A stretch of DNA of 45,163 nt from Synechococcus sp. (lineage in GTDB: Bacteria > Cyanobacteriota > Cyanobacteriia > Thermostichales > PCC-7336). How positions within the stretch are numbered: position 1 is the stretch's first letter; every line of letters starts with the position of its first letter. Shown piece after piece: positions 9,839-43,300 of the stretch. The notes under the pieces were generated by a model. That model searched no databases. It was not told where the DNA came from and saw only the letters and a program-made list of their open reading frames with translations. The stretch spans positions 1-45,163 of the forward strand of contig JBFRWN010000112.1 of NCBI GenBank assembly GCA_051439605.1. Reading direction: 5' to 3'. The position numbers were made by a program, and so were the translations under genes.

Positions 9839-9881
9839 GAGGATTAAACCCGGAAGACCCAGGGAGCTAAGACTCTGAGGA

Positions 9882-14600: not shown

Positions 14601-15699
14601 GGTGTTGGCCGAAGACAGCCCCCAACGCTCCCACTTCGATGGGGTCGCCCAGCGAAGTGCCCGTACCGTGGGCTTCGATATAGCTCACCTGGCTGGGATC
14701 GACGTTGCCGTTGGCTAAAGCCTCTCGGATGACCGCTTGTTGAGCGGGGCCGTTAGGGACGGTGAGACCACTGCTGCGACCGTCTTGGTTCACCGCCGAG
14801 CCGCGAATCAGCGCCAAGACGGTATCGCCCTCTTGCTGTGCGTCGGAGAGGCGCTTGAGCACAATCGCCCCACAGCCCTCGCCGCGAATATAGCCATCAG
14901 CAGCGGCATCGAAGGTCTTGCAGCGTCCGTCAGGAGCCAACATGTGCGCCTTGGCAAAGTTCACCGTCGATTCTGGCGACAGCAGTAGATTGACCCCGCC
15001 GGCGATCGCTAGATTGCTTTCGCAATTGCGCAGGCTTTGACAGGCTAAATGAATGGCAACTAGCGAAGACGAACAAGCGGTATCGACCGCTAGGCTCGGC
15101 CCTTGTAAGCCTAAGAAATACGAAAGTCGGCCGGCAGCAACACTGTGGGCGTTGCCGGTGCCCATGTAAGCATCAATGGTGTCGATACCCTGAGCTAGGA
15201 GGCGCTGCGAATAATCGCTACTGCAAATACCGACAAACACCCCTGTTTTGCTGCCCGTCAGCTGCTCAGCAGCAATGCCAGCATGCTCTAGCGCTTCCCA
15301 GCTCACCTCCATCCACAGTCGATGTTGCGGATCGAGGCTGAGGGCCTCGCGTGGGGTCATGCCGAAAAATTGCGGGTCGAAGGCGTCGGGCTGGTCGATG
15401 AAACCGCCGTAACGGGTGTAGATCTTCCCCGGCGTGTGGGGATCGGGATCGAAATAGGCATCCACATCCCAGCGGTCGGTCGGCACCTCGGAGATCGCGT
15501 CTACTCCGTCGCGCAAGAGCGCCCAAAATTCTGACGGATTGTTCGCTCCGCCGGGAAAGCGGCAGCCCATACCGACGATGGCAATCGGTTCGACCTTGGC
15601 TTTTTCCACAGAATCGAGTCGGGCGCGCATTTGCCGCAACTCCAGCAGCGCCTTCTTCATTAAGGTCGGATAGTCCGGTGTGGTAGGAGGGGTTCCCAT
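11632..15699 (-). CDS. Type I PKS module 3: KS-AT-ACP-TE
   Basis: N-terminal docking helix; KS DTACSSS/HGTGT/GHLE; malonyl AT GHSVG/HAFHS; ACP LGLDSL; thioesterase [19 protein letters not shown]. Start overlaps the upstream stop (TAATG). Confidence 0.95.
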
Positions 15700-18600: not shown

Positions 18601-21600
18601 TCGCAAAAGAGCAACCACTGCCTCGAGGGTCGGTGCCCGTTGTGGGTCGATGCCGAAGTGACTAGAGGCTGCGGATTCCAAGAGGTGCGGTACAGCCAAC
18701 TGCCAGTATCGACCTCAGTTTGCAACATGCGCTGGATAACCTTGCGGCTCACGCTGCGCAGCGACAGTCCGCTGACATCGGCAACGAGAATACCGGTCTC
18801 GTCTAACAGTTGTACGTCAGCGACGAGCAGTTGTTGCTTGGCACCTTTAATGTCGCGAATCTTGGCTCGACTCCACACCTGCGCACCCGGACGGCGGTAG
18901 AGGGTCAATGACTCAATACCCACCGGCATGTAGGTATCGCGTCTGCCGTTATCGGGGGCGATCGCCCCGAGTATTTGGAAGCAGGCATCGAGTAACGCCG
19001 GATGCAGGTGATACTGACCGACCTCAGCGGTTAGATCCTCTGCCAGTCGCATTTGTCCGAGGGCCGTTCCGTCAGCTTGTTGCCAGAGGTTCTGAAGTCC
19101 CTGGAAGCTGGGGCCGTAGTCCATGCCGCGCTCGCGGAAGCGTTGATAGTGGGCATCGACTGCTATCGGAGTGCCACGTTCAGCCTGCTGCAGCGGTGCA
19201 ATGTCGCTAGTTTCTGTAGCGGTTCGAGCTGGCGCTGCTTGAATCTCGCCAGTCGCATGAAGCGTCCAGTCGGATTCCTCAACCGCATCGAGAGTTTTGG
19301 CACTGAAAATCTGGAACGAATACGCTGCGTCGGTTTTGGGAGAGAGGATGAGCTGGACAGTTGCGGGCGTATCCCCACTCAGAACCAGCGCTTGCTTGAT
19401 GGCAATGTCGCTGACACTCAGGTGTTGAGAACGAAGTGCTGATGTACCAGCGGCGATCGCCATTTCAACGTAAGCCGTTGCCGGAACGACAACCGCCTGA
19501 CAAATCTGATGGTGCGCTAGCCAACTCTGAGTATCGAGAGCGAGCCGGGATTCATACTGAATGTGCTGGAGTGCTGACTGTAACCGCTGTCCTAGCAACG
19601 GGTGCGAACGAGTGCTGCCGTAACGGTTAGTGGCCTTGACGACAGGGGGTTCAGTCGGCTGACGGACTTGGCTAGTACTGTGGGGGCGAACCCAAAATCG
19701 CTGTCGCTGGAACGGATAGGTCGGTAGCAAAACCGCTTGACGATGGTAGTCGCGGTCGAAGCCCGACCAATCGATGTCTGCACCAGAGGCATAGAGTGTG
19801 GCCAGACTCTGGAGTAACCGATGCCAGTCTTCGCGACCGGGTCGCAAACTCGGCAGCCAGTGAGCGTTGTCATGCCGATCGGGCACGCACAGTCGTCCCA
19901 TGCCGAGCAACGTGGGCTTAGGCCCGACTTCCAGCCAAGCATCGTAGCCCTGCCGAGCTAGGGTCTGAACGCTGCTGGCAAACAATACCGGCTGGCTGAT
20001 GTGACGACACCAATAGTCGGCGCTGGCGATCGCCCCAGTTGCCGTTTGACCGGTCACGTTTGAAATGAGTTCGATCTGGGGTGGCGAATAAGCAATCGTG
20101 CGGGCCACGGCTTCGAACTCCGCCAGCATTGGTTCCATCAGCGGCGAGTGAAACGCGTGAGACACCCGTAGCGGTTTAACCTTGATGCCCTGCTGTTTTA
20201 GCGTCGAGCAGACGCGATCGACAATCGACTTGCGACCGGAAATAACGGTGCTATTCGGGCCATTGATGGCGGCGATCGCCACGTCCCCAGCGTAGGGTTT
20301 GATGGCATCGCGGACCAGCTGAGCGTCAGCTAGCAGCGATACCATTGCTCCATCGCGCGGCAACTGCTGCATCAATCGGGCGCGGGTGGCCAACAGCTGC
20401 AGCCCTTCTTCCAAACTGAAAACCCCTGCCAAGCAGGCGGCGACATATTCGCCAACACTGTGACCCATGACGGCACTGGGCCGAACGCCCCACGATAGCC
20501 AGAGCTGAGCTAGTGCGTATTCCAGTGCAAATAGAGCGGGTTGAGTGTAGGCCGTATCGTTTAACGGAGATCGCCGACCAGCTGGCGGATATAACACTGA
20601 CAGCAACGGTTGCTCTAGATAAGGGGCCAGAATATCTGCACAGCGATCGAGTGCCGCTCGGAAGGTCGGCTGGGTCTCGTAAAGCTGGCGACCCATATCG
20701 ACATACTGAGACCCTTGGCCGGTGAAGAGAAAGACCACCCTCGGGTGACTGGCTCGTGGGAAATGACCAGTCGTCATGTCAGCCGAACTTTGGCCGGGTG
20801 AATAAGTGGCTAATTTGTCGCGTAATTGCTGAGGTGACGAGGCGATCGCCGCCAGTCGATAGGCGAAGTGAGAGCGTCCAGTATTGGCAGAACAGCAGAG
20901 GTCAGCGAGTGACTGCTCGGGATGGGCGGCCAGATGACGTTTGTAACGACGCGCCAGATCGAGGAGGGCTTTTTCCGATTTGGCCGATAGGGTCAGCAGG
21001 TGGAGGGGGCGATCGCTCGTCTCGCCAGATCCTGTTTTGCTCGATTCTGTAGAAGGTGATGGTCTGCTGGGAGCTTCTTCCAACAGGATATGGGCGTTGG
21101 TCCCACTGGCCCCGAACGAACTCACCCCCGCTAGTCGCGGCTTATACCCTTGAGGCCAAGGGGTTAAGCGGGTGGGAATCGTCACCGGCAGCTCGTCCCA
21201 GTTGATATAGGGGTTGGGCTGTTTGAGATGCAGGTGGGGGGGAATCTGCTGGTGCTGTAGCGATAGGATGACTTTGATTAAGCCCGCCACACCAGCCGCC
21301 GACTCTAAATGGCCGATATTGGTTTTCACCGAGCCGACCGCAATCGGGCGATCGCCCGGGCGATTGTGTCCCAATACAGCAGCCAAGGCCCGTATCTCGA
21401 TGGGGTCGCCCAGCGACGTTCCGGTACCGTGGGCCTCAACGTAGTCCACGTCAGCTGGTGTAATGTTGGCGGCGGTCAACACGCGCTGCATCAACGCCTC
21501 TTGAGCGGCTTTGTTGGGCACGGTAAACCCGCTACTCGGCCCGTCTTGGTTGACTGCCGAGCTGCGAATTAGTGCCAAAATGCGATCGCCGTCGCGCTCG

Positions 21601-22450
21601 GCATCCGAGAGGCGTTTGAGCACTAACATGCCGCAACCCTCCCCCCGCACGAACCCATTGGCTGTGGCATCGAAGGTTTTGCAACGACCGTCAGGGGCCA
21701 TCATCCGCGCCCGCGACAGAGCCACTGTATTGTCAGGAGCCAGAATTAAGTTCACTCCCCCAGCCAACGCTAAATCGCACTCGCCATTCCGCAGACTTTG
21801 ACTGGCTAGATGCACCGATACCAACGACGACGAGCAAGCTGTATCGATAGCTATGCTCGGTCCTTGTAGCCCGAAGGTGTACGACAGTCGACCGGCAACC
21901 GCATTGAGGGGATTGCCCGCCAAGAAATACGTATCGATGGCGTTGAGATCGCCCCCCGGTACCAATAACCGTGCGTAATCATTGGTGGTGATGCCTACAA
22001 ATACCCCAGTCTGGCTGCCCGATAACTGTTTGGGGATCAGGCCGGCCCGTTCCAACGCTTCCCAGCTCACCTCCAGCAACAGCCGTTGTTGCGGGTCCAT
22101 GTTGGCGGCTTCTCGAGGTGAAATGCCAAAAAATTGCGGATCGAACTGGTCAACCTGCTGCAAAAAGCCACCGTAGCGCGTGTAGGTCTTACCGGCTGCT
22201 TCTGGATCGGGATCGTAAAACTGGTCAATATCCCAGCGCTCTGGCGGCACCTCGCCGATCGTGTCAACGCCCTGGCTCAGCACCTGCCAGAACTCTTCAG
22301 GGTTATTGGCACCGCCGGGGAAGCGGCAGCTCGTGCCGATGATGGCGATGGGTTCGGTTTTGGCCCGCTCTACAGCTTCGAGCTTGGCGATCGCCTCGTC
22401 AAGAGCGAGGAGGATGCGCTGCGAGGAAGGCTGAGTTTCGGTTCGGTTGC

Positions 22451-22454
<4 letters not shown>
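15699..22454 (-). CDS. Type I PKS module 2: KS-AT-DH-ER-KR-ACP
   Basis: [89 protein letters not shown]; docking helices at both ends. Confidence 0.95.
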
Positions 22455-27298
<4,844 letters not shown>

Positions 27299-27417: not shown

Positions 27418-28830
27418 TTACGCACTGGCGGCGATCGTCCTGGTCAACTGTTTGAAAGCCTGCCGATTGTTCTTCAACGCTTTCTCAATCGAGCCACCTG
27501 CCTGCATCAATCGCATCTCGCGATTGACCGGCCATAAATAGTCAATGCCGTCGAAAAATCGGCGCAAATCGGCAAGCAAGCGATGGTGGTACTTGAGATT
27601 GATGTGAAAGCCTTCGTGCTCTTTGCACAAACACTTCTTCAACCAATGCAGAGCATCGGAGGAATTCATCTCAAACAGTGGCGACTGCAAGAGTTGGTAG
27701 AAGGACTCGATAAAGTCAGCATCGTTGCGAAATACTGCAGGCAATCCTCCTGACAGGCCGCTATGTCCAACACGCTGAACGCGGTAAACAATTGTGTTAG
27801 CTAACGCTTTTTCATAAGCCGTCGGCTTATAAAAGTCCTTGTATAAATCACGAGCAATTAACTGGGAAGTAGTCGTATGAAATGCTTCATCTTGCAGATG
27901 ATAATTGGAAATAGCAGTAGGAGCTGGAATAAATACATCTTGCTTCTGCAACTCTCTGTAGTACTGGCAGTAGCGATACTCGTAATTTTTGAGCAGCATA
28001 TTCGCCATATAACGAGTCACGTAGAACAAGCAGGCAAGAAAAGGAGAGCTTCCACAATTGAGGGTAAAAAATTGCAGAAATGGGCGTGCTCCCCACTGAC
28101 CGACCAGACCCGTAGTCTGAACGGGAATCGGCTCTCCTTTTTTATCTAGTTCCTGTAGGTACTTCGAATAGTAGGGCGCTTTATCTTTAAGCATTATTTG
28201 ATGAGCAATCAGTCGGTAGACTTTTTCCCGTACATTGCTAGAAGTTAGTTGCTTGCGAATGGAAGAGGTCGGCCGGTCGATCGCTTTACCAATTTTTGCT
28301 CTGACGCGTTGGGGAGATGATGCTGACCGATTTCGCATCGATGCTCCAAATGCCGATTTGCCCAGCAGTGCTCGCTTCGTTTTGTAGCCAATCGAATGAA
28401 ACGCGTGAATGTGATACCGCTCTTGATCGGTTTCTAAATCTAATTCTTGGCACAATACATCGTAGCCACTCAGGGTCGCAAATACTCCTGCCGTGATTTG
28501 GTTATACAGCACGGCATTCGCTTCGGTTGCTGCCGTTTGGTTGTACTGTCTGGCCCAATATAAATGGTTGAGAGCTAGCTTCTGCGCCTGCGAAGCCTCT
28601 TCGTAGAGCGGCGTGCCGTAAAGTGTCGATAGCTCGGGAGCGCCCCAGAAGGTATGCTGATTATCGCTGTAGGAAAAGCTCTTATCAAGCTCGGCAATTT
28701 TTTCAGTGTAGTCAGACTCTACATTCCGCTGGTAGTTGATGGCATTCAGCTTGATATGCTTCTTAGTTTTGTTATTTTGACTTTCTTCAGTCGTTGGTTC
28801 GAAAGGTAGCGGATTTGCTGTACTTACCAT
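27418..28830 (-). CDS. CylC-type dimetal-carboxylate (ferritin-like) acyl-ACP halogenase
   Basis: FWGAPELSTLYGTPLYEEASQAQKLALNHLYW and metal-ligand motifs ETDQERYH and HLQDEAFH; lies between a free ACP and a PKS, as in cylBCD. Confidence 0.88.
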   Translation of the reverse strand: MVSTANPLPFEPTTEESQNNKTKKHIKLNAINYQRNVESDYTEKIAELDKSFSYSDNQHTFWGAPELSTLYGTPLYEEASQAQKLALNHLYWARQYNQTAATEANAVLYNQITAGVFATLSGYDVLCQELDLETDQERYHIHAFHSIGYKTKRALLGKSAFGASMRNRSASSPQRVRAKIGKAIDRPTSSIRKQLTSSNVREKVYRLIAHQIMLKDKAPYYSKYLQELDKKGEPIPVQTTGLVGQWGARPFLQFFTLNCGSSPFLACLFYVTRYMANMLLKNYEYRYCQYYRELQKQDVFIPAPTAISNYHLQDEAFHTTTSQLIARDLYKDFYKPTAYEKALANTIVYRVQRVGHSGLSGGLPAVFRNDADFIESFYQLLQSPLFEMNSSDALHWLKKCLCKEHEGFHINLKYHHRLLADLRRFFDGIDYLWPVNREMRLMQAGGSIEKALKNNRQAFKQLTRTIAASA

Positions 28831-29284: not shown

Positions 29285-30283
29285 TTAGCGTTCTCTGGTT
29301 TTCAGAGCCTTAACGGATGGCACCTGAACGTCCCAAATCCAGCCAGCGCGTTCGAGCGTGCGGATAAACCAGGTGCCGGGGTCAATTTGCCACCAGTGCA
29401 AACCGGCGATCGCTGAGGTCGGGAATGCGTGATGGTTGTTGTGCCACGACTGTCCCCAGCTAGGGATGGCCAGCCAGGCATTGTTCGTGCTGTGGTCTTC
29501 AGATCGATAGGGAGTGCTCCCGAACAGGTGACCAATCGAATTGGTGCTGTTGATGACGTGTTGACCCATGCAAATCCGCACTAAGCCTCCCCATAAAAAT
29601 CCCTGCAGCGCCCCAACCCATGAGGTTGTCAGCACTCCCACTAAAACTGTGGGAACCAGAATGCCCAGCAGTACCCAGATGTGCTGTAACTGATTCACCC
29701 GCGAAATCGCTTTATCGCGCAGCAAGTCTCTAGCAAACAGTGCTGAGTTAGTCACCTCACCCTCAAAGGTCCACCCCATGTGGGAATGCCACAGACCGCG
29801 TAAGCGATCGCCCAAACTCAGACCGTACAAGTGCGGCGAATGCGGATCGCCCGGTTGGTCGGTGAACTGGTGGTGACGTCGATGGTGAGCAACCCAGAAG
29901 ATGGGTCCTCCCTGCGCAGCCATCGATCCGAACACGGCAAGCAGCACCCGCATAGAGGCATTTGCCTGAAACGACCGATGGGAAAAGAGGCGGTGATAGC
30001 CAACCTCAATGCCCAATGTTGTTATGGCGTAGAAACTGATTGCCACACCTATCGCCACCGAACTCAGACCGGTGTAAGGCAACAATCCAATAGCCACAAC
30101 CGTTCCCAGCAAAGGAATCAGAACTGTCGCCAAGCTCAAACGTCGGTAAATGGTTTGTAGGTAGTTGCTGGAAACTTTGATCTTGAAAGGCTTGCGAGAT
30201 CGTGCAGACGCTGATGGGCGATCGTCAGGTTGACGGTGAACCCGACCTTCAGCTTCTCCGATCGCGGAACTGAACTGAGTCAT
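29285..30283 (-). CDS. Membrane acyl-ACP desaturase/acetylenase (JamB-like), copy 2
   Basis: His boxes HRLFSH, HRRHH (followed by DPHSP) and HNNHH; GWTFEGEVTN segment; adjacent to the ACP. Confidence 0.85.
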   Translation of the reverse strand: MTQFSSAIGEAEGRVHRQPDDRPSASARSRKPFKIKVSSNYLQTIYRRLSLATVLIPLLGTVVAIGLLPYTGLSSVAIGVAISFYAITTLGIEVGYHRLFSHRSFQANASMRVLLAVFGSMAAQGGPIFWVAHHRRHHQFTDQPGDPHSPHLYGLSLGDRLRGLWHSHMGWTFEGEVTNSALFARDLLRDKAISRVNQLQHIWVLLGILVPTVLVGVLTTSWVGALQGFLWGGLVRICMGQHVINSTNSIGHLFGSTPYRSEDHSTNNAWLAIPSWGQSWHNNHHAFPTSAIAGLHWWQIDPGTWFIRTLERAGWIWDVQVPSVKALKTRER

Positions 30284-30331: not shown

Positions 30332-31306
30332 TTAGGATTTCACTCGTTTAGAGGCTTGCATTTCTGGCGATGGAACTTTGACTGACCACGCTAGCCCGAG
30401 TATTTCGAGCAGTCCGATCGTCCAGCCGCCGATGTCTACCTGCCACCATGTCAGACCAAACATGGCTGAATTCGGAAAGGCATGATGGTTGTTGTGCCAG
30501 CCTTCTCCACCTGTTGGGATGGCTGTCCAAACGTTATTCGTGCTGCGTTCGCGGGTGGCAAAAGGGCGGCGACCGAACAAGTGGGTAACCGAGTTAACAC
30601 TCCAAATGGCGTGATGCACTAGGAAGACTCTGACAAACCCGCCCCATAGCAATCCGCGGACAACACCTGTCCACGAATCCAGCCACATTCCTCCGATGGC
30701 CGCTGGGATGGCAAACCCAAGCAATACCCATAGCAAGTACGACTGATTAATTCTGACCAGGACTCGATCTTTTAACAGGTCTTTGGACAACAGAACATTG
30801 GGAAACTCGCCTTCGAATAACCAACCCACATGGGAATGCCAAAACCCATACAGACCCCCGAGGGATTCCCCCGTCTTGCCAATATGAGGAGAGTGAGGAT
30901 CGCCATCCGCGTCACTGCACTGATGGTGCCGTCGGTGATTGCTGACCCAATGAATGACGTGGCCTTGAGCAGCCATTGAACCCAATACGGCTAACACAGC
31001 CTTTACCGCAGATCCAGTCTGGAAGGCACTGTGTGATAGAAGGCGGTGATAGCCGACAGTGATGCCAATAAGCGTTGCCAAGTACATCACAGCCGCAACA
31101 GTACCCGTAACCCAGTCAAATCCCACTGTTCCGAGCGATCCAACTGCCACAAGGGTACCGATGAAAGGAATGAAGACAGCAGCGTAACCAAACAGCTGCT
31201 GCACAGTCGTCAGTCGATCGTTCAACATAGTGACACTGCTGCGACCCCGCCATGAAGGCACCGACTGAAGGCTGCTCTGAATTTCCGCACTATTCAACTG
31301 CATCAA
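30332..31306 (-). CDS. Membrane acyl-ACP desaturase/acetylenase (JamB-like), copy 1
   Basis: His boxes HRLLSH, HRRHH (followed by DPHSP) and HNNHH; GWLFEGEFPN segment; first gene of the long minus-strand operon. Confidence 0.85.
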   Translation of the reverse strand: MMQLNSAEIQSSLQSVPSWRGRSSVTMLNDRLTTVQQLFGYAAVFIPFIGTLVAVGSLGTVGFDWVTGTVAAVMYLATLIGITVGYHRLLSHSAFQTGSAVKAVLAVLGSMAAQGHVIHWVSNHRRHHQCSDADGDPHSPHIGKTGESLGGLYGFWHSHVGWLFEGEFPNVLLSKDLLKDRVLVRINQSYLLWVLLGFAIPAAIGGMWLDSWTGVVRGLLWGGFVRVFLVHHAIWSVNSVTHLFGRRPFATRERSTNNVWTAIPTGGEGWHNNHHAFPNSAMFGLTWWQVDIGGWTIGLLEILGLAWSVKVPSPEMQASKRVKS

Positions 31307-32162: not shown

Positions 32163-32485
32163 TTTATTATTATTGCCGTAAGTGTTTTCCGTTTCCGATT
32201 CGAGGATTTGCTCTAGGCAGTGACGTCGTCATTGATCTTTGGCTTCTATTTCTCATTATTAAGTCATCTTGCTCTGTTTGTTCCTATCAAATATCAGATT
32301 CATGCATGAGATGATGCGTGAGCTGTATGGCTGTCTAGATTGGTTATGAAGCCTCTAGTCTAAAGCACGAATTTTGTAGTATCTGAATCCGTAATTCGGG
32401 ATTTCATGTGAGGTTGCTCGCAAGAGGTCTGCTGTTTTATTCAACAACCCACCCATGCTTTCATGCGCTTAAAGGATTGCCGCTC

Positions 32486-34345
32486 ATGTTACTTACTGGT
32501 ACTCGCTCGACCCCAGATACTTTCGTCGATCTCCTACATCACCAATCATCAAGCAACCCTCACCGCATCGCTTACAAGTTTCTAAAGCATGGAGGAGACA
32601 AGCAATCGTCGACTGTCACCTATCAAGAGATCGCGCAGCAGGCTCAGGCGATCGCCGCAGAGTTGCAGCAGCATCACCCAGCAGGTAGCCGTGCTTTATT
32701 GCTCTACCAGCCTGGGATCAATTACGTCGCGGCCTTCTTGGGGTGCTTGTACGCTGGAATTGTGGCGGTTCCCGCCTATCCGCCACGACGCAATCAATCT
32801 GCGATACGGTTGCGGGCCATTGTGAACGATGCCTGCGCATCTGTGGCTTTAACCACAGCAGCCGTTTTGGAGTCAGTTCAAGGGGCGCTGACTAGCAACA
32901 CTGACCTAGCTCAATTGCGCTGGCTAGCAACTGATACGCTTCCATCCGATCTAGCTACTGAGTGGTCTCCTACGAGCATTGCTGGCGATACCTTGGCATT
33001 CCTTCAATACACATCGGGTTCCACTGGCGATCCAAAGGGAGTCATGGTCAGCCATGCCAATCTGCTGCATAACTCAGCAACCATTCACCAATGCTTCGGA
33101 CATTCGACAGACAGCCAGGGTGTAATTTGGCTGCCTCCTTATCACGACATGGGACTGATTGGCGGAATTTTGCAACCGCTGTACGGTGGCTTCCCCGTAA
33201 CGCTGATGTCACCCGTTGATTTTCTGCAACGACCGCTGCGATGGCTGCAAGCGATTTCAACTGAGCGCGCCACTACTAGCGGTGGCCCTAATTTTGCTTA
33301 TGACTTATGCTTGCAGAAAATCACGCCGGAGCAAAAAGAATCCCTGGATTTGAGCAGTTGGAACGTTGCCTTTACTGGTGCTGAACCCATTCGTGCTCGC
33401 ACCATTGAGCGCTTCTCTGCAGAATTTTCAGCCTGTGGATTTCGTCGAGAAGCGTTTTATCCCTGCTATGGCATGGCTGAGGCAACGTTAATTGTTACGG
33501 GTGGGCTGGTGAACGAGCCGCCGACCACCTACATTGTTGACGGTGATACCCTGAATCAGAACCAGGTCACTTCGTTTCATCCGGATGCTCGTCCAGCCAA
33601 CAGTCGGCAGTTGGTAGGATGCGGCACAGCTTGTCGAGACACGACAATTCGGATCGTCGAGCCAGGATCGCGGGTTCAATGTCCGCCCCAGCAAGTGGGT
33701 GAGATATGGTTATCGAGCCCCAGCGTGGCCCGGGGATATTGGAATCAGTCAGAGAAAACTCAAGCTACGTTTAATGCCTTCGTGGCTAATACTGGAGAGG
33801 GGCCGTTCCTTCGCACTGGTGACCTGGGCTTTATCCAAGATGGCGAACTGGTGGTAACCGGCCGCATCAAGGATATGACGATTATCAAAGGCCGCAACTA
33901 TTACCCTCAAGATTTGGAACTCACGGTCGAAAACAGTCACCCTGCTATTCGACCGGGCTGCGGAGCAGCCTTTGCCGTTGATTTAGATGGTTCTGAACGG
34001 CTGGTTATCGTGTATGAAGTTAAGCGCAGCTACCTGCGAAAGCTCAATGTAAACGAGATCGTTGGTTGCATTCGCCAGGCGATCGCCGCCGAACATTCCT
34101 TACAAGTCTATGCAACAGTATTGGTTAAAACTGGCAGCATCCCTAAGACATCGAGCGGAAAGATTCGGCGTTTTGCTTGCCGAGATCGCTTTTTAAGCGG
34201 CCAGCTTAATGTTGTCAATGACTGGTGTAAATCACCCCAAGGTCGTTTTGATTTTATCAAACTCAAAGCAGATATTGAGTTCACATTACACAATTTGCGA
34301 GAGAATTTGAATCACAACAAGAATGTCAAAAAGATCTTCAAATAA
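32486..34345 (+). CDS. Fatty acyl-AMP ligase (FAAL; CylA/JamA-like loading enzyme)
   Basis: LQYTSGSTGDPKGV, WLPPYHDMGLIG, YPCYGMAEATL, FLRTGDLG and IPKTSSGK; ATG 32486 has an AAGGA RBS. Confidence 0.94.
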   Translation: MLLTGTRSTPDTFVDLLHHQSSSNPHRIAYKFLKHGGDKQSSTVTYQEIAQQAQAIAAELQQHHPAGSRALLLYQPGINYVAAFLGCLYAGIVAVPAYPPRRNQSAIRLRAIVNDACASVALTTAAVLESVQGALTSNTDLAQLRWLATDTLPSDLATEWSPTSIAGDTLAFLQYTSGSTGDPKGVMVSHANLLHNSATIHQCFGHSTDSQGVIWLPPYHDMGLIGGILQPLYGGFPVTLMSPVDFLQRPLRWLQAISTERATTSGGPNFAYDLCLQKITPEQKESLDLSSWNVAFTGAEPIRARTIERFSAEFSACGFRREAFYPCYGMAEATLIVTGGLVNEPPTTYIVDGDTLNQNQVTSFHPDARPANSRQLVGCGTACRDTTIRIVEPGSRVQCPPQQVGEIWLSSPSVARGYWNQSEKTQATFNAFVANTGEGPFLRTGDLGFIQDGELVVTGRIKDMTIIKGRNYYPQDLELTVENSHPAIRPGCGAAFAVDLDGSERLVIVYEVKRSYLRKLNVNEIVGCIRQAIAAEHSLQVYATVLVKTGSIPKTSSGKIRRFACRDRFLSGQLNVVNDWCKSPQGRFDFIKLKADIEFTLHNLRENLNHNKNVKKIFK

Positions 34346-35066: not shown

Positions 35067-35513
35067 GCTTTCCAGCGTTCGTTGGTGAAAACTATGCAAG
35101 TAGAGTTTCATGACCAAATACCTATAACTTCAACCTTCAATTATGGCAGGAAATATTATTTTGGATGCTCTGTAGTAAAGCGGTATAGTTTGACAAATAG
35201 ATTATTAGGATTCAGGACTATTTCTTTAGGCTGGGAGTATACTTTTTTGGAAGTGATTCTATGCAAAATAAGATTAACTAATACCGTTAAGCATTATAAG
35301 CAAGCAGGCTTATAATATTTATCGAGAAAAATAACTACTTAATCAAGTAAGATTTTCCTGATTAAATAGAGGAGATAAATCAGCATTCAAGAAAGCATCA
35401 ATTTTTGGTTCTATCAATCGAAAATATGCTTGGTATCTTGCCCCTTATCCGTCAGGTCAACAGTACCCTTTAGCGTCAATTTCCACACCCAAAATGCTCT
35501 GGAAGGCTTATTC

Positions 35514-36782
35514 GTGACTCAGTTGCAACCCAAACCGGATTTGGATCGCCAGCCTATTTCGACTGGGGGCTTGCCACACAAACCCCGACGGAGGTTGAAA
35601 GTGGCGAGTGCAATTGCGGTGGCGATCGCCGCTACAGGCATCGTCACATGGCAATTCCTAGACCAGCCTGAATCGGGGGTTCTGCCTGTGAGTGGACGGA
35701 TTGAAGGCTACGAAACGGATGTCAGTGCTAAAGTGGGCGGGCGCATTGGGTTCGTGGCCGTACGGGAAGGGGATGCGGTGAAGCAGGGGGAGCTACTCGT
35801 GCGTTTGGATGACGAAGAGGCGCAGGCGCAGTTGCGGGGATCAATGGCGCGGCTGACCGCTGCCAAACAGCAGGAGCGGCGATCGCAGCTTAACCTGGCT
35901 GTAATCGAGAGTCAGATCGAAGAAGTTCAGCTGATCGTGCGCCAATCCCAAGGCGATGCCGAGGGGCGAATTTTGCAGGCGGAGGGGCAACTGGCAGCGG
36001 CAGAGGCGGAATTAGTGGAAGCAAACGCACAGGTGGAAGCAGCGCAGGCGGATTTGAAATTGGCCAAGGCAGATCGCGAACGGCTTGCCCAGTTGCTAAA
36101 AGAAGGTGCCATCCCCCAGCAGCAGTTCGACCAAGTCCAGGCTCGTTTAGAGACGGAAAAGGCAGCGTTACAGGCTCGCGAGGCAATTGTCATTGCTGCT
36201 CGCCAACAAGTGGATGCGGCTCGCGGGGCATTGGGGCAGGCCAGAACTTCCGCTTTGAATCCTGACATTCGCACAGCTCAACTGGCGGCTTTGCAAACGC
36301 AACTGCTCCGGGCTGAGGCCGAGGTGGAGGCAGCCCGAGCGGATGTGGTTAACGCCCGCGCTGCTCGAGAGGAGATTGAAGCCCGTCTCGATTTCTTGCA
36401 CGTTGTGAGTCCCATCGATGGTGTGACACTGGCTCGCATGGTGGAACCGGCCGAAGTGGTCGGTGTGGGCACGGCTCTACTGTCACTGGTGAACCTAGAT
36501 ACTGTTTACATGAGGGGTTACATCCCGGAAGGGGATATCGGCAGGGTGCGGGTGGGTCAGGCCGCCAGGGTGTTTTTGGATTCAGCCCCCGATCGCCCCC
36601 TCAGTGCCCGCGTGATTGCGATCGATCCCGAAGCATCGTTTACGCCAGAAAACATCTACTTTCGAGATGATCGCGTCAATCAAGTATTTGGTTTGAGGAT
36701 CGGCATTGACAATCCGGAGGGGTTTGCAAAACCGGGCATGCCCGCTGATGCAGAAATTCTCATCGGCGAATCCGAACCATGA
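35514..36782 (+). CDS. HlyD-family membrane fusion protein (YbhG-like)
   Basis: N-terminal TM helix, VSGRIEG, long coiled coil, EASFTPENIY, AKPGMPADA. GTG 35514 has a GGAAGG RBS (ORF-track start 35430). Confidence 0.9.
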   Translation: MTQLQPKPDLDRQPISTGGLPHKPRRRLKVASAIAVAIAATGIVTWQFLDQPESGVLPVSGRIEGYETDVSAKVGGRIGFVAVREGDAVKQGELLVRLDDEEAQAQLRGSMARLTAAKQQERRSQLNLAVIESQIEEVQLIVRQSQGDAEGRILQAEGQLAAAEAELVEANAQVEAAQADLKLAKADRERLAQLLKEGAIPQQQFDQVQARLETEKAALQAREAIVIAARQQVDAARGALGQARTSALNPDIRTAQLAALQTQLLRAEAEVEAARADVVNARAAREEIEARLDFLHVVSPIDGVTLARMVEPAEVVGVGTALLSLVNLDTVYMRGYIPEGDIGRVRVGQAARVFLDSAPDRPLSARVIAIDPEASFTPENIYFRDDRVNQVFGLRIGIDNPEGFAKPGMPADAEILIGESEP

Positions 36783-38770
36783 GTATGGAAAAAGTGGGTT
36801 CGAGATCGGGGTTGAACGGTCATCAGACAGCGACTGGGCTTCTCAATGCAATCGCCGTCAAAGGACTCTCCAAACGTTATGGCCAGTTCGTCGCCGTGGC
36901 AGGACTCGACTTCGCGGTTCGGCCAGGGGAAATCTTCGGTCTGATCGGTCCTGACGGGGCGGGCAAGACGACAACCTTTCAGATTTTGGCCGGGGTGATG
37001 GAAGCCACGGCGGGGGAGGTGAGGGTTCTGGGACGAGTGCCGAGGGAGGCGCGACTGGACATCGGCTATATGACACAGCAGTTTTCTCTCTATATAGACC
37101 TCAGCGTGGACGAAAACCTGCGGTACGTGGCAGGACTGCGGCAAGTAGCTGCCGATGCCTTTGCGGAACGCCGCCGCAAGTACTTGCAGCTCGTGGGACT
37201 GGAGCCATTTAGTGATCGCCTCGCCGGGAATCTGTCCGGCGGTATGCGGCAGAAACTCGCTCTCTGCTGTGCCTCGATCTCGCAACCGCAGGTGTTGTTG
37301 CTGGACGAACCGACGACAGGCGTTGACCCCGTCTCCCGGCGGGAGTTTTGGGACATGTTGGGGGCCCTCGCCTCGGAAGGCATGACGATTGTTGTGGCAA
37401 CTCCCTATCTGGATGAAGCCGAGCGCTGCCATCGCATTGCCCTGATGTATGGCGGGCAGATTCAGCAGCTAGGAACGCTGCCAGAGTTGCGATCGCGTCT
37501 TGGGTTGGAACGGCTAGAGGTCCGAGCCTCCGACATTGCAGCAGCAGAACTGGTGTTGAGAACCGCCCCTCCGTCCAAACTTCAGCCAGGGGCGCGTTCT
37601 GCAGTGGCTTTGGCCGACATTCAGTCGTTTGGCGATCGCCTCGACATCTTGGTTGAAGACGCTGCTGTTGCACAACCGCACATCCACGCGCTGCTGAGGC
37701 GACATGGGCTCAAACCGCAGTCCATCCAAACGGTACCCCCAACCCTCGAAAACGTTTTCGTCAGTCACTTGCGCCAGCAAAGGTCGGAACCTCCGTACAT
37801 TCCCTTCGATCGCCAAAAGCCAGGAGGCAATCGGCAGTCCGATGCGATCGCCATTGGCGCGCAAAAACTGTACAAGACCTTCGGCAGCTTCCCCGCAGTG
37901 AAAGGGATCGATCTGGACATTCGCTACGGTGAGATTTATGGCTTGCTAGGAGCGAACGGTGCAGGCAAAACGACCACGATTAAAATGCTGTGCGGGCTTC
38001 TCGTGCCCACCAGCGGCGATATCTGCCTGGCTGGCGAACGAGGGGACTTGCGCCGCCAAGCCGTGCGGCAGCGGATTGGCTACATGAGCCAGAAATTTAC
38101 CCTCTACGACGATTTGACAATTGGCGAAAATCTGGAGTTTTACAGCGGCGTTTACGGCATTCCAAGACGGTTTCGCAAGGACCGGATTGCATGGGTTTTA
38201 GAAACCTGCGGGCTGGTCGGTCGCGAGCATTTGCTAACGGGTCGGTTGCCGGGGGGGTGGAAGCAACGGGTGGCGTTTGGCGCTGCGGTGATGCACGAGC
38301 CGGACATTCTGTTCCTGGACGAGCCTACTTCTGGCGTAGACCCGCTAGCGCGTCGCCAGTTCTGGCGGTCGATCGAGGACTTTGCCCGTCAGGGAACGGC
38401 GGTGCTGGTGACCACCCACTACCTAGAGGAAGCGGAGCACTGCCAGCGGATTGGGCTGATGGTGGCTGGAGCCATCGTAGCTGCGGGTTCGCCCAGCGAG
38501 ATTAAGGGATCGCAGCCAGGACAGATGCTGGAGGTGGTTGTCGATCGCCCGCTCAAGGCTTCGACAGTCCTGAAGTCGTGGATGGCCCCCTGGCAAGTCT
38601 CGATTTTCGGCGATCGCCTCCATCTCGTTCTCGACAATCCGGAACGAGACCTGCCACCTCTGCAAGCGGCTCTCCGGTCAGCGCAATTGGACCTGCATTC
38701 GGTGCGATCGATTCCGTTCTCGCTCGAAGACGCTTTTATTGGCATCGTGCAGCGGACTGAGGTTGGGTAG
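36779..38770 (+). CDS. Double-domain ABC transporter ATPase (YbhF-like)
   Basis: Two Walker A motifs (GPDGAGKTT, GANGAGKTT), signatures LSGGM and LPGGW, Walker B LLLDEPT and LFLDEPT. Confidence 0.95.
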   Translation: MSMEKVGSRSGLNGHQTATGLLNAIAVKGLSKRYGQFVAVAGLDFAVRPGEIFGLIGPDGAGKTTTFQILAGVMEATAGEVRVLGRVPREARLDIGYMTQQFSLYIDLSVDENLRYVAGLRQVAADAFAERRRKYLQLVGLEPFSDRLAGNLSGGMRQKLALCCASISQPQVLLLDEPTTGVDPVSRREFWDMLGALASEGMTIVVATPYLDEAERCHRIALMYGGQIQQLGTLPELRSRLGLERLEVRASDIAAAELVLRTAPPSKLQPGARSAVALADIQSFGDRLDILVEDAAVAQPHIHALLRRHGLKPQSIQTVPPTLENVFVSHLRQQRSEPPYIPFDRQKPGGNRQSDAIAIGAQKLYKTFGSFPAVKGIDLDIRYGEIYGLLGANGAGKTTTIKMLCGLLVPTSGDICLAGERGDLRRQAVRQRIGYMSQKFTLYDDLTIGENLEFYSGVYGIPRRFRKDRIAWVLETCGLVGREHLLTGRLPGGWKQRVAFGAAVMHEPDILFLDEPTSGVDPLARRQFWRSIEDFARQGTAVLVTTHYLEEAEHCQRIGLMVAGAIVAAGSPSEIKGSQPGQMLEVVVDRPLKASTVLKSWMAPWQVSIFGDRLHLVLDNPERDLPPLQAALRSAQLDLHSVRSIPFSLEDAFIGIVQRTEVG

Positions 38771-39883
38771 ATGGTCGGTCGTCGCATTTGGACTCAGTGT
38801 GTTAAGGAGCTGAAGCAATTTCAGCGCGATCGCCTTACCCTCGCTCTGGCGTTTGTGCTGCCGTTAGCCATGCTGCTAATCTTCGGCTACGCTATCCGCC
38901 TGGAAGCGAAAAACATTCCGCTGGCGATCCAAGATTTCGATCGCAGTCCCCTCAGCCGCGCCTACATCGAGCGTCTCTTTGCCACTAATCAGTTTCAGCC
39001 GGCGGCCTGGCCTAGCGAGGGGAGTCCGATTGAGCCGATCGATCGAGGGGTGGCTAAAGCAATAGTTGTGATTCCCCCCGAATTTTCCCGCCGGATTGCG
39101 TCGGAGCGATCCCTCCCCCTCCAGGTGCTGGTGGATGGGACAGATGTAAACAACGCTCGCGTGATTCGCGAAAGTGTGCGAGCGACGACAAATTTCTTTT
39201 TGCGCGATCGCGGCCTGCAATCCGAACCCCAACGCATCGTCCCTCGCACTCGCCTCTGGTTCAATCCCGGTCGCAAAGAATCTCTGTACATTGCGCCAGG
39301 AGTTTATGCCGTAATTTTAGCCATCTTTCCGTCCCTACTGGCTGCTGTAGCCATGGTGCGAGAGCAGGAAAAGGGAACGATTGTGCAGGTTTACGCCTCC
39401 AGTTTGACTGCAGCAGAATTACTGCTGGGGAAGGGATTGGCTTACTTCTTGATTGCCGTAGGAGAAACGGCGATCGTGATGGGTAGTGGCTCGCTGCTAT
39501 TTCGGCTGCGATTGGCGGGAGATCCCACGCCCCTATTGCTGGGCACCCCTCTGTTTTTATCTGCGGGGGTTGCCTACGGTCTCTTTATCGGCGTTCGCGC
39601 CCGAAACCAAGATGCTGCGGTTCAGATCGTTGCCCTGACGGGATTTCTGACTTCGCTCCTGCTGTCGGGCTTTATCTATCCCCTCAGCAACATTCCCTTT
39701 CCCCTCTCTGCCATCTCCAATATCGTTCCAGCCCGCTACTTTATTGTTTTGACTCGGGATGCTTTCATACGGGGAACGGGCTGGCTGGGCGTTTGGTTTG
39801 CCCCCATCATGCTGGCAGTTTTGGCGGGTACGTTTTTTGCAGCGGGCTGGCGCGTTTTGCGGCGCATGCAGCTAAGGGAGTAA
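38771..39883 (+). CDS. ABC-2 type permease (YbhS-like)
   Basis: KELKQFQRDR, LWFNPG, VREQEKGT and multiple TM helices. Confidence 0.92.
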   Translation: MVGRRIWTQCVKELKQFQRDRLTLALAFVLPLAMLLIFGYAIRLEAKNIPLAIQDFDRSPLSRAYIERLFATNQFQPAAWPSEGSPIEPIDRGVAKAIVVIPPEFSRRIASERSLPLQVLVDGTDVNNARVIRESVRATTNFFLRDRGLQSEPQRIVPRTRLWFNPGRKESLYIAPGVYAVILAIFPSLLAAVAMVREQEKGTIVQVYASSLTAAELLLGKGLAYFLIAVGETAIVMGSGSLLFRLRLAGDPTPLLLGTPLFLSAGVAYGLFIGVRARNQDAAVQIVALTGFLTSLLLSGFIYPLSNIPFPLSAISNIVPARYFIVLTRDAFIRGTGWLGVWFAPIMLAVLAGTFFAAGWRVLRRMQLRE

Positions 39884-39886
39884 GTC

Positions 39887-41017
39887 ATGCTGAACGTTCT
39901 GGCAAATCTGTTTGAAAGTCGGTTTTGGGCTTTGGCTCAAAAAGAGTTGGGTCAAATTTTCAAGAACCGGCAACTGCTCCTACTGCTGATTGTGCCGCCT
40001 ACCATTCAGCTGTTGATCTACGGGTTTGCCCTCAATCCTGAGGTTCAGAACCTCCGGCTGGGGATTGTTGATTATGACAATACCGCCGCCAGTCGAGAGC
40101 TAGTGTCGAGCTTCACGGAAAATCGCGTGTTTCTGGCCAAGCGCTATAGCGGCAGTCAGCAGGAAGTTGGCAATCTGGTGCGGACCGGACAGATCGACGT
40201 GGGTCTGGCGATTCCACCGGACTTCAATCGCGATCTGATTGGGGGCAAGACGGCGGAAGTGCAGGTCTTAATTGATGGTGTCGATGCCAACACAGCTGGA
40301 ATTGCCAATGGATATGTGGCGCAGATTGTCGAGCAGTACAGTCGTCAGCTGGATGGCATTCGCGCCCCCCCTTTAGTCGAACCGCAGGTGACATTTCTCT
40401 ACAACCCCGGATTGAGGAGCAGTTGGTTTTTTGTGCCGGGGATGATTGGCGTTGTAGTGACGCTGATTAGTTCGTTGGTGTCTGCCTCCGCCGTGATTCG
40501 CGAGAAGGATACGGGCACGCTGGAACAGCTATTGATGACCCCAGCTTCGGCAGTTGAGATTATCTCGGCTAAAATCGTGCCGCTTTTCGTGCTGTTGATG
40601 GGGGATGTGGGGTTGGCGGTGGGTGTGGGGCGGTGGGTGTTCGACGTGCCCTTTCGCGGCCACCTGTTTCTATTTATGGCACTCTCGAGCCTCTATCTGT
40701 TTGTCGGCATCGGGATTGGCACAATGTTGGCGACGTTGGCTCAAAATCAACAGCAGGTGATGCTGAGTTCGTTTTTCATCAACGTGCCTCTGATTCAGCT
40801 GTCGGGGGCGGTTGCGCCGGTTGAAAGTATGCCTGCTTTTTTTCGCTATTTGTCGCAGTGGTTGAATCCCTTGCTGCATTACGTGGTGATTCTGCGCGGC
40901 ATCATGTTGAAGGGGGTAGGAATAGACGTGCTTTGGCCCCACGCGCTGTTTATGGCTGTGTTTGCTATCATTCTTCTCTCCATTAGTATTAGTCGGTTGA
41001 ACGATCGGCTCGGCTGA
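39887..41017 (+). CDS. ABC-2 type permease (YbhR-like)
   Basis: FLYNPGLRSSWFFVPG, IREKDTGTLEQLLMTP and multiple TM helices. Confidence 0.92.
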   Translation: MLNVLANLFESRFWALAQKELGQIFKNRQLLLLLIVPPTIQLLIYGFALNPEVQNLRLGIVDYDNTAASRELVSSFTENRVFLAKRYSGSQQEVGNLVRTGQIDVGLAIPPDFNRDLIGGKTAEVQVLIDGVDANTAGIANGYVAQIVEQYSRQLDGIRAPPLVEPQVTFLYNPGLRSSWFFVPGMIGVVVTLISSLVSASAVIREKDTGTLEQLLMTPASAVEIISAKIVPLFVLLMGDVGLAVGVGRWVFDVPFRGHLFLFMALSSLYLFVGIGIGTMLATLAQNQQQVMLSSFFINVPLIQLSGAVAPVESMPAFFRYLSQWLNPLLHYVVILRGIMLKGVGIDVLWPHALFMAVFAIILLSISISRLNDRLG

Positions 41018-41211: not shown

Positions 41212-42963
41212 TTAAGCAACAAAGTCCTGCAGGGCTAGGTCAGTTGACAGCTGAGCCACCCACGGATCGTACGATCCAGCATTGCCGGAACCTAAAGAGC
41301 CATCTGTAAATCCAGCGACAAAAATACTGTCTGGCCCAATGGCAATACCTTGCGATCGGTCGTCTCCTGCCGAGCCAAACTGAACCGTATTGAGAATGTT
41401 GCCATCACTATCCAGTTGGGCTATCCAGGCATCGTCCTCCCCGGCTGACGAGCCGTCGGCTAATGTACCGCTGGTATAGCCAGTCACCAGTATGTTGTCG
41501 TCTTCATTTACCTCGATGCCAAACGGCGTGTCGGTGCCCGTACTGCCAAACTGTTGGACCCAGAGCTGGTCGCCGTCGGGCTCGTACTTGGCTACCCAGG
41601 CATCGTATTCGCCAGCATTACTACCGCCCAAGTCGCCTAATGTGAATCCTGTTGCGTAAACGTTGCCCTCACTATCAGTAGCCGTACCGTAGGCAAAGTC
41701 GTAGTCCCCAGTGCCGAGCTGCTCAATCCACAGCTGATTTCCGTCACTGTCGAATTTTGCTATCCAGGCATCGTACAGACCAGCGTTGGTGCCCCCCAAA
41801 TCGCCAATCGTCCATCCTGTAGCGATGACGTTGTTATCTAGGTCTGTAGCAGTACCGAAGAGTTCGTCAAATGTGTCAGTGCCAAACTGTTGGGTCCAGA
41901 TTTGGTTGCCACTATTATCGAACTTGACAAGAAATGGGTCGGTTTCACCTTCATTTGTACCGCCCAAGCTACCTTGCGTATAGCCACCTAAGACAACGTT
42001 ATCGGCACTGTCTATCGATAAGCTGCCTTCGAATGTGTTGTCGAGGCTTTCTGTTCCAATTTGATCGATAAACATTTGATTGCCATCGCTATCAAATTTT
42101 GCAATCCAGGCATCATTTCCTCCTTCATTTTCGCCGCCTAAATCACCACTGGTGACTCCAGAAACAAAAACTTCCCCATTACTATCAATTGCCACACTAA
42201 AATTAGTTTCTGACTCGGGAGTACCGAATTGTTGGATAAAATTTAAACTTCCACTGCTGTTGTATTGAGCAATCCAAGCATCATTACCTCCTTCATTCTC
42301 GCTGCCCAGCTCTCCAGATGTTCCACCTACAATCGTGACATTACCTTCGCTGTCAGCAGCCACGTCAAAGGCAAAATCGGCTCCGGGCGAACCTATCTGC
42401 TGAACCAATGCCACTTCTGCTTCTGAAGGAGGCGGTTCGCTAACGTATTCGAAATAGTCTGCTGTGAGGCTGAGATCTGAGTCACCTGCAATAACGGAAA
42501 TAAGATCGTTTCCTTCGTTTCTAAATAAGACGGAAAATGATGCCCCTAAGAATGGAATATTGATTTCTCTGAGTCTGTAGTCATCAGAGCTACCATTCAG
42601 CCGAATTATGTCTGCATCACTATTGAAATCTGCAACAATAGCAAAATCTAGCAGGCTCGCTTCTGCATAGTAGGGATTCAGGCCATCACCCAAAACAAAT
42701 AAATCTGCATCGGGAGCAACCGTAGTTCCCAAGCCATCAAAAGCTTCGATTGGTTCAGCCGGACCACCAATTAATACATCAATTTGGAGATCGCCAGCAT
42801 TATTACCAATCTCACCAGGATCGACGCCTAACAACACGTCGTCGCCAGTTCGCCCCAGAATAATATCGTTGCCTGCAGATTGGAAAATAATGTCGTTGCC
42901 AGGTGTTCGCGCAGTGAGGTTGAAAAAACTAAGAATGATAGAAATTAGCTCTTCAGGAAACAT
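41212..42963 (-). CDS. CylK/BrtB-like protein: N-terminal RTX-like Ca2+ domain plus 7-bladed SBBP beta-propeller (putative alkyl-halide alkylating enzyme)
   Basis: IILGRTGDDVLLGVDPG, DLFVLGDGLNPYY, DLSLTADYFEY, seven Q(F/I/L)G(S/T) blade repeats including GTGDYDFAY, C-terminal NAGSYDPW...QDF. ATG 42963 has a GAGGAG RBS. Confidence 0.8.
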   Translation of the reverse strand: MFPEELISIILSFFNLTARTPGNDIIFQSAGNDIILGRTGDDVLLGVDPGEIGNNAGDLQIDVLIGGPAEPIEAFDGLGTTVAPDADLFVLGDGLNPYYAEASLLDFAIVADFNSDADIIRLNGSSDDYRLREINIPFLGASFSVLFRNEGNDLISVIAGDSDLSLTADYFEYVSEPPPSEAEVALVQQIGSPGADFAFDVAADSEGNVTIVGGTSGELGSENEGGNDAWIAQYNSSGSLNFIQQFGTPESETNFSVAIDSNGEVFVSGVTSGDLGGENEGGNDAWIAKFDSDGNQMFIDQIGTESLDNTFEGSLSIDSADNVVLGGYTQGSLGGTNEGETDPFLVKFDNSGNQIWTQQFGTDTFDELFGTATDLDNNVIATGWTIGDLGGTNAGLYDAWIAKFDSDGNQLWIEQLGTGDYDFAYGTATDSEGNVYATGFTLGDLGGSNAGEYDAWVAKYEPDGDQLWVQQFGSTGTDTPFGIEVNEDDNILVTGYTSGTLADGSSAGEDDAWIAQLDSDGNILNTVQFGSAGDDRSQGIAIGPDSIFVAGFTDGSLGSGNAGSYDPWVAQLSTDLALQDFVA

Positions 42964-43300
42964 AAAACTCCTCAAACTCCTCAGAAACGGTGTTGGCTAG
43001 TCTTATTTACTATTCAACTTTTTTGCATTGAGCTAGGCTGTGTAACTTCAACCACAGATAAGAAGCCAGACAAAATCAATCACACCAAATGAGTGCTGAA
43101 AGCCTGTCCTCGTCATAAGCTAGCAATCAAATATTTCTCTATGCACGCCTGATTGTACATCAAATAAAAGTAGTGTAAGTGATTTCTCGTAGACATTCTA
43201 GAAACCTGTGGATTTTCTGAATCAGTCTAAGGTATCCCACAGAACATTTTGGTATTTTTTATACGTATTGTAGATTTAATATTGTAGATTTGATGCAGTC

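Follow-up and report, generated by a model that had tools for sequence, protein, structure and literature searches.

Background

CylK, BrtB and NglO were the characterised members of the alkyl-halide-activating CylK enzyme family found in the literature, and a different nucleophile is used in each of these three known reaction types. CylK (with CabK and MerH) is the Friedel-Crafts alkylase of cylindrocyclophane assembly, in which R105 and Y473 bind the halide, D440 and E374 hold two phenols and the reaction inverts the centre (PMC8916777; PMC9804301). Exchanging E374 for Ala or D440 for Asn abolishes or almost abolishes CylK activity (PMC8916777), and phenol is not converted by the enzyme (PMC9804301). 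BrtB esterifies bartolosides with fatty acids, its substrate being a chlorinated alkylresorcinol (PMC7081238; also treated in PMC11686503), and NglO performs the etherification in nostochloroside formation (PMC10849952); both of these published O-alkylating members have Glu at position 440 (PMC8916777; PMC10849952). E374 and L438 are not widely conserved in the family, for which 286 two-domain CylK homologues have been reported, 53 with both residues and 10 clustered with CylI (PMC8916777). Here, a CylK-like gene and the biosynthetic cluster beside it were investigated in a contig of 45,163 nucleotides from Synechococcus sp. (JBFRWN010000112.1), the whole of which is referred to as the window. 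The family is known; the clade to which the gene belongs, and the sulfotransferase-containing orphan cluster type in which it is found, are uncharacterised.

The gene encodes a two-domain protein of the CylK family

The open reading frame (ORF) has the same start position as the close homologues P0006, P0007 and P0009-P0011, and was the only CylK-like match in the 4.9-Mb genome. Its product is labelled by Pfam as SBBP repeats with a weak RTX repeat, its score against NCBIfam LipL53 was 234, under the cut-off of 400, and the propeller-coding DNA has a repeat spacing of 168 nt. The original prediction had assigned the protein to the CylK family from an RTX-like N-domain, seven propeller blades and motif blocks lining up end to end with CylK, and this assignment was borne out. 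A phmmer search of PDB sequences gave four distinct matches at E<=0.01, all of which were CylK (E ~7e-125), and the motif blocks are present in the printed alignment. An AlphaFold2 model generated from 92 sequences (pLDDT 93.2, pTM 0.92), in which seven blades are visible, superposed on five CylK entries over both domains with Z 59.6-61.1 and a root mean square deviation of 1.5-2.0 A (549-565 residues, 42-43% identity), while the next-best fold reached Z 33.7. A first model from 12 sequences, with a poor N-domain, matched CylK at Foldseek E values of 1e-53 to 1e-55, with the following fold at 2e-11.

The combination of an RTX-like N-domain and a seven-bladed propeller with identity to CylK above 24%, by which the family is delimited in PMC8916777, was found, as were equivalents of Arg105 and Tyr473 in the sequence alignment and an acidic residue at 440 (E367). 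Generic SBBP surface proteins, defined by a propeller alone with no conserved Arg, Tyr or acid, differ in that the N-domain is present here. The ORF is, as judged from sequence and model, a real and intact member of the known CylK enzyme family, and the best explanation of the comparisons is that it encodes a Ca2+-stabilised enzyme that would catalyse the last coupling step of the cluster.

The protein is ~70 residues shorter than CylK at the N-terminus and strongly acidic (17% D+E, 2% K+R). An amphipathic-looking N-terminal helix (residues 4-13, window 42925-42954) is common to its clade, and no signal peptide was seen by eye; in two clade members, L084 (9887-12319) and P0008, part of the N-domain is repeated before the intact unit. 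A promoter and terminator scan gave one and two sites, compared with 3.9 and 2.2 expected.

Active-site residues and their conservation

Residue positions could be mapped directly, because the 7RON chain numbering in the alignment reproduces the published T84, D96, R105, H391, L438, D440 and Y473 (Table 1). The Arg that had been put forward as the CylK arginine, R38, aligns with R105. Its proposed partner was misassigned: the Tyr originally chosen, Y421, lies in a variable column, and the true equivalent of Y473 is Y397, which sits in blade 4 by the strand count of the model; both members of the Arg/Tyr pair are present. T84, R105, Y473, F499 (F423) and the acidic character of 440 are retained from CylK. 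The CylK resorcinol site E374, H391, L438 and D440, which marks the cyclophane subfamily, is replaced by N309, Y328, F365 and E367, and the second bromide site S318/W320/N334 by T/F/V. R536 is conserved as Arg in 9/10 aligned clade members and may contact an anion.

Conservation was assessed in 147 two-domain homologues kept of 201 after near-duplicates and fragments were removed, a set which is biased to the best matches of the query and whose profile was built from sequences bearing the Arg and Tyr. Column 105 was R in 147/147 and column 473 Y in 146/147, while column 497 was Y in 103/147. At column 440, E was found in 116/147 and D in 30/147; column 374 was Asn in 38 sequences, Gln in 28, Thr in 16 and Glu in 13, and Asn374/Glu440 was the commonest pair (37/147). 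In a control of 72 propeller-only proteins the matching columns were scattered, with Y in 26/142 aligned stretches and E in 16/110. By these counts the protein is typical of family members that lie outside the cyclophane clade. The earlier reading of LDN and FDE, the motifs with N309 and E367, as departures from CylK at these two positions was correct, but the residues are not unusual, and LDN/FDE alone was rejected as a mark of novelty.

Several searches returned little. N-domain-only searches gave three proteins in one case and matches in 46/401 genomes, mainly generic RTX proteins, in the other; a search of 50% representatives was dominated by long propeller repeats; a search of genome contigs for related loci gave two distant loci; and a plasmid search gave three records at ~30-33% identity and no close cluster. 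BrtB was missed by the single-sequence query (0/14) and recovered with an alignment query.

Phylogenetic position

P0107, which has CylK numbering and the residues of Table 4 of PMC8916777, was used as the CylK proxy, and NglO was represented by the ORF in L134 with the published numbers R84, E428 and Y460 (PMC10849952). L191 and L192 served as BrtB-like proxies (not proven BrtB), matching 18/23 BrtB table residues, R374 included. A FastTree phylogeny of the 147 sequences placed the query with P0002, P0006-P0011, P0013, L054 (= P0014) and L084 (support 1.0), and all members of this clade carry the same active-site fingerprint. In IQ-TREE (64 sequences, 550 columns, midpoint root) the query clade was recovered separately from the CylK clade with a Shimodaira-Hasegawa-like approximate likelihood-ratio test (SH-aLRT) value of 94.3. 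The protein is thus placed apart from the CylK clade in both trees.

NglO resembles the protein in its Arg/Tyr pair and Glu base and is a candidate model for O-alkylation; it differs in its length (861 aa with an extra C-terminal domain, against 583 aa), in its place across the tree split and in acting on a glycolipid, without a type III polyketide synthase (PKS) (PMC10849952). BrtB likewise shares the Arg/Tyr pair and Glu440. Among R374, E440, Y499, I318, W334 and the DarAB context of BrtB, only E440 is shared, and its DarAB-type pathway contrasts with CylI in the window cluster.

The gene is associated with a sulfotransferase-containing cluster type

In common with the CylK cluster, the window contains FAAL (fatty acyl-AMP ligase), an acyl carrier protein (ACP), a CylC halogenase, a type I PKS ending in a thioesterase (TE), CylI and a methyltransferase; it differs in having three PKS modules, two desaturases, a flavin monooxygenase (FMO), a TauE-type transporter and a sulfotransferase. 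The partner CylC, with both of the motifs QExxH and HxxDExxH that are named as CylC-type (PMC12101540), is on the same contig as the CylK-like gene, and the CylI-type monoalkylresorcinol synthase expected of the cyclophane subfamily is also present in the cluster.

Flanking DNA was compared for both clade members with readable surroundings, G865 and L084. G865 encodes a protein identical to P0014 ('SBBP repeat-containing protein [Pleurocapsa sp. PCC 7319]'), which has 49-55% identity to the query and the same fingerprint, and its gene order is FAAL-ACP-CylC-PKS-CylI(71%)-P450-PhyH-methyltransferase-FMO-FMO-TauE-sulfotransferase-major facilitator transporter-sulfotransferase, plus the CylK-like gene. 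G865 thus differs from the window cluster in its single PKS, P450, PhyH-family enzyme, two FMOs, two sulfotransferases and lack of desaturases. In L084, methyltransferase, FMO, TauE and sulfotransferase are followed directly by the CylK-like gene. Identities of the cassette proteins to those of the window are 67-70% (FMO), 69% (TauE), 55% (sulfotransferase) and 60-64% (methyltransferase). Its two closest relatives with readable flanks adjoin the same FMO-TauE-sulfotransferase cassette, which links the enzyme to this pathway, as the original prediction had supposed in having it act on the chlorinated product of the cluster. A search for the FMO in 401 genomes of one cyanobacterial order gave eight matches at E<=1e-60, three of them at >=67% identity, and 3/3 genomes with the latter carry a CylK-like gene within 7 kb of the FMO. 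The CylK-like gene near the FMO in G955 and G937 belongs to another subclade.

The P0014 relative may already be catalogued in the supplement of PMC8916777, which gives IMG ids only; a row of its Supplementary file 2 places CylC 13 and CylI 11 ORFs away, compared with 12 and 10 counted in G865. Orphan type III PKS/CylC clusters have been surveyed (PMC8916777; PMC8406957; PMC8086630; bioRxiv 10.64898/2026.09.06.749771). No product or enzyme of a CylC-CylI-sulfotransferase cluster was found in the sections of the literature available; Fig. S9 of PMC8406957 may show a related cluster.

Further clusters of the same plan were found in G1003, G775, G826, G991, G846 and G781. When the count was limited to CylK-like genes lying no more than 25 kb from a sulfotransferase match, column 440 was E in 16/16 genes of 11 sulfotransferase-bearing clusters (window included), and column 374 was N in eight, R in four, T in two and A in two, with no E; the two A calls fall in a shortened loop and are uncertain. 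The type III PKS loci in which no sulfotransferase was detected, G1066, L085 and G904, each have an E374/D440 enzyme. The count leaves out loci whose fetched DNA lacks a type III PKS (G834, G782, G1164, G1140, G661, G833 and contig C92 of G991) as well as G872, which ends before the position of the sulfotransferase in its relatives. In several related clusters the PKS lacks a ketoreductase (KR), by length and best match to module 3, and the sulfotransferase is kept; a phenol is therefore the likely sulfate acceptor.

Proposed reaction and alternatives

By analogy with the cylindrocyclophane pathway, FAAL would load a fatty acid onto the ACP, CylC would chlorinate the loaded chain and the desaturases would oxidise it. 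The three PKS modules would extend the chain, giving in turn a retained hydroxyl, full reduction and a ketone, and the CylI-like PKS would close a 5-alkylresorcinol with oxygen at 4' and a side chain three carbons longer than the starter (after the cyl logic of PMC6836626). Less securely, the sulfotransferase and/or methyltransferase would cap one phenol and the FMO would oxidise ring or chain. R38 and Y397 would then bind the C-Cl bond, E367 would deprotonate a hydroxyl on another molecule or within the same one, and SN2 displacement would release chloride.

The reading preferred here, with a probability of roughly 0.4, is O-alkylation by a phenol or alcohol, in which chloride would be displaced from a chlorinated alkylresorcinol with one phenol capped and a C-O bond formed. 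With Asn in place of E374 the enzyme would, we infer, no longer grip two free phenols. The residue pattern fits a ring with one phenol capped by anionic sulfate or methyl, which would be a weaker carbon nucleophile with a phenolate oxygen left. The likeliest nucleophile would be oxygen, the remaining phenol first, yielding an aryl alkyl ether dimer, oligomer or macrocycle, or else a side-chain alcohol as in NglO. Among nucleophiles, the original prediction had listed carbon and oxygen, the latter as an ester, and had overlooked the published ether formation by NglO (PMC10849952). A more specific proposal is that the clade performs an enzymatic Williamson reaction: an alkylresorcinol that has been sulfated or methylated would displace chloride from a secondary alkyl chloride through its phenolate, and dimers or macrocycles joined by aryl alkyl ethers would result. 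This is somewhat doubtful.

A number of observations weigh against O-alkylation. A split with SH-aLRT 100 puts the query clade together with CylK and sets NglO and the BrtB-like pair opposite, and identity to the query is 55% for the G865 protein and 44% for the CylK proxy but 39% for NglO and 36% for the BrtB-like proteins. The association of residue 374 with the sulfotransferase is a correlation among few related lineages, and the compared clusters are themselves few and related; N374/E440, as the commonest pair of the family, need not reflect sulfation; and the L085 sequence ends early, so that absence of a sulfotransferase is not established there. O-methylation is not assured, because in L085 this methyltransferase stands next to an enzyme of the E374/D440 type and the CylJ of the cyl cluster is uncharacterised (PMC6836626). 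Tailoring may also come before or after coupling.

The foremost alternative is a Friedel-Crafts C-alkylase with a remodelled site, which would couple chlorinated alkylresorcinols at ring carbon before sulfation and yield a cyclophane of larger size, a linear dimer or a nostocyclyne-type monomeric ring. This is possible, if tentative. The CylI-like synthase, the retained CylK residues with an acid at 440, and the place of the protein on the CylK side of the tree, in a wider clade that includes E374/D440 enzymes from type III PKS clusters (G904, G833), all favour it; CylC, CylI and CylK have been predicted for nostocyclyne A (PMC6836626), for which the two desaturases could supply an alkyne. However, the desaturase sequences gave no split between alkene- and alkyne-forming types and related clusters lack these genes, E374, H391, L438 and D440 are all changed relative to every cyclophane enzyme in Table 4 of PMC8916777, and the query lies outside the CylK clade.

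That the gene is a passenger or relic, moved by insertion sequences (IS), acting on another substrate or encoding a non-catalytic Ca2+-binding surface protein, is unlikely. The gene forms its own transcription unit behind the exporter, with 12 kb separating it from cylC and 30 kb from the type III PKS, and lies between two IS-end-like relics (41124-41204 and 43757-43838); its GC content at four-fold sites is 0.46, compared with 0.63-0.74 in the PKS, FMO and TauE genes. Against this, the G865 orthologue is also low in GC relative to its neighbours (0.27 vs 0.35-0.42), and low GC3 was rejected as proof that the gene is foreign; no other CylK-like gene was found in the genome, relatives of the gene occupy the same cassette, and R, Y and E are kept, unlike in the propeller-only controls.

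BrtB-like esterification, which would attach carboxylates such as free fatty acids to the chlorinated carbon, is improbable. Glu at 440 would suit it, and a capped resorcinol would be a poor nucleophile, as for the bartolosides (PMC7081238), but R374 of BrtB is replaced by N, only 6/23 BrtB table residues match (18/23 in L191/L192), and a separate R374/E440 paralogue in related clusters (G955, G937, G1003, G991) is the better candidate. Formation of a C-S bond with a thiol or persulfide, towards products like the bryozoan pentaporins (two disulfide-bridged 5-alkenylresorcinols that have a C15 chain, two double bonds and sulfate on the side chain, as described in words in PMC5706034), is very improbable: the two desaturases, a KR without dehydratase (DH), the sulfotransferase, FMO and TauE would suit it and a C12 starter would give C15, but the cluster has no sulfur-mobilising gene, the methyltransferase is left unexplained, relatives without KR or desaturases retain the sulfotransferase, and no link between pentaporins and cyanobacteria was found in the papers searched.

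Organisation of the window and its surroundings

The features of the window are given in Table 1. The CylC-type protein had no match among PDB sequences, and a second, distant CylC-like gene (31-38% identity) lies elsewhere in the genome (G000:C16:25452-26558). In related clusters a small ORF that separates FAAL from CylC has 60-67% identity to the ACP. Neither an HMG-CoA cassette nor a Rieske protein was found among the window ORFs scanned. The stand-alone RTX gene directly follows the sulfotransferase, the place of the CylK-like gene in L084. Contig C68 carries another copy of the 4'-phosphopantetheinyl transferase, with 76% identity to that of the cluster, which suggests that the cluster copy was recruited locally.

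Table 1. Coordinates of the genes, domains and predicted active-site codons in the window
Feature	Position	Strand	Remarks
4'-Phosphopantetheinyl transferase	3215..3997	plus	
Stand-alone RTX protein	4904..5806	minus	cap module as in CylK N-domain, Glu at Arg site, no propeller
Sulfotransferase	5894..7087	minus	
TauE/SafE-family transporter	7142..8164	minus	
Class B flavin monooxygenase, FMO5-like	8219..9919	minus	likely start near 9835
ICMT-family membrane methyltransferase	9882..10484	minus	
Type III PKS, CylI-like alkylresorcinol synthase	10492..11619	minus	CylI 8YSP E 2.6e-148; next match 3e-60
PKS module 3	11632..15699	minus	ketosynthase (KS)-acyltransferase (AT)-ACP-TE
PKS module 2	15699..22454	minus	KS-AT-DH-enoylreductase-KR-ACP
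PKS module 1	22451..27298	minus	KS-AT-KR-ACP, without DH; KR without LDD
CylC-type dimetal halogenase	27418..28830	minus	QExxH (QERYH) and HxxDExxH (HLQDEAFH)
Free-standing acyl carrier protein, CylB-like, 87 aa	28889..29152	minus	DSS motif
Two delta-9-type membrane desaturases	29285..30283, 30332..31306	minus	
Fatty acyl-AMP ligase, CylA-like	32408..34345	plus	
ABC exporter operon	35430..41017	plus	adaptor, double ATPase, two ABC-2 permeases; convergent with CylK-like gene
CylK-family alkyl-halide-activating enzyme gene	41212..42963	minus	intact ORF, 583 aa from ATG
Seven-bladed beta-propeller	41239..42423	minus	~residues 181-575
R536	41356..41358	minus	blade-7 position in register with 374/440; alignment column 613
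Y421 (CylK Y497)	41701..41703	minus	GDYDF; sequence alignment; not the catalytic Tyr
Y397 (CylK Y473)	41773..41775	minus	AGLYDAW; sequence alignment; predicted halide binding
E367 (CylK D440)	41863..41865	minus	proposed general base; Glu also in BrtB, NglO
N309 (CylK E374)	42037..42039	minus	E374 binds second phenol in CylK; BrtB has Arg
N-terminal RTX-like Ca2+-binding beta-roll and cap	42439..42924	minus	~residues 14-175
R38 (CylK R105)	42850..42852	minus	sequence alignment; predicted halide binding, role from PMC8916777
Shine-Dalgarno-like GAGGAG	42968..42973	minus	ahead of ATG at 42963

A MobF relaxase gene (window 120-2051), 89% identical to a copy on contig C13, stops after 643 aa in the helicase part, at the contig edge. 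The repeats that flank the CylK-like gene are degenerate, and a further one (2857-2960) is found where the cluster ends on the other side; the right end of the window (43300-45163) is taken up by a truncated Uma2 gene together with transposase fragments of IS1 and other types. In six same-family genomes (85-100% complete) the CylK-like gene was not found at E<=1e-40, and in five of these the type III PKS was not found. A location of the cluster on a mobile island is suggested by the sequence, because the relaxase and IS relics bound the cluster, and the searches of close relatives gave no copy of the CylK-like gene or of the type III PKS. The DNA occurs in marine sediment runs, and no RNA run was listed as containing it. 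Read depth from cylC to the CylK-like gene was even, at 26-38, in run X1 from marine sediment, which is possibly the source and so not independent support.

Several related clusters contain two or three CylK paralogues (L173-L178, L190; G955:C229, G937:C113, G1003:C74, G991:C117) with N, R (as in BrtB) or A at column 374, and two CylC genes each were found in G955, G1003, G775 and G826. From these sequences a division of labour between two sites and two nucleophiles is possible in the paralogue-rich clusters. A PhyH-family iron/2-oxoglutarate enzyme is encoded in G865:C7 near 403200-404400 (L111) and also in G937, G1003, G775 and G826; the G865 copy has an HQA motif, which we take to be typical of halogenases. 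G775 and G826 also carry a flavin-dependent halogenase-like gene. In L113-L119 (G846, G781) the CylK-like gene lies between a PfaA-like operon with CylC and a DevBCA-ACP-PKS-CylI-methyltransferase-methyltransferase-sulfotransferase operon. In L001 (9902-15124; L135/L154) a protein of 1740 aa carries a tandem pair of complete CylK units, the first of which groups near NglO; its neighbours are a PKS, a short-chain dehydrogenase/reductase, a glycosyltransferase and a methyltransferase.

Implications

The literature already covers the family, with hundreds of catalogued members, along with its catalytic residues and untapped diversity, and the enzyme is a useful target rather than a surprise; alkyl-halide coupling enzymes are wanted as biocatalysts, and one close relative is from a named culture-collection strain. 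Orphan clusters with CylC, CylI, a sulfotransferase and CylK-like genes without E374/D440 are now grouped. Sulfated alkylresorcinols are known from bryozoans (PMC5706034; PMC7230173). The CylK-like enzyme may form a bond not yet known for the family, and aryl ether formation, if true, would be the fourth bond type for CylK enzymes and would define a class of sulfated marine cyanobacterial lipids whose related clusters number at least 11, several of them having two or three CylK paralogues that differ in their tuning.

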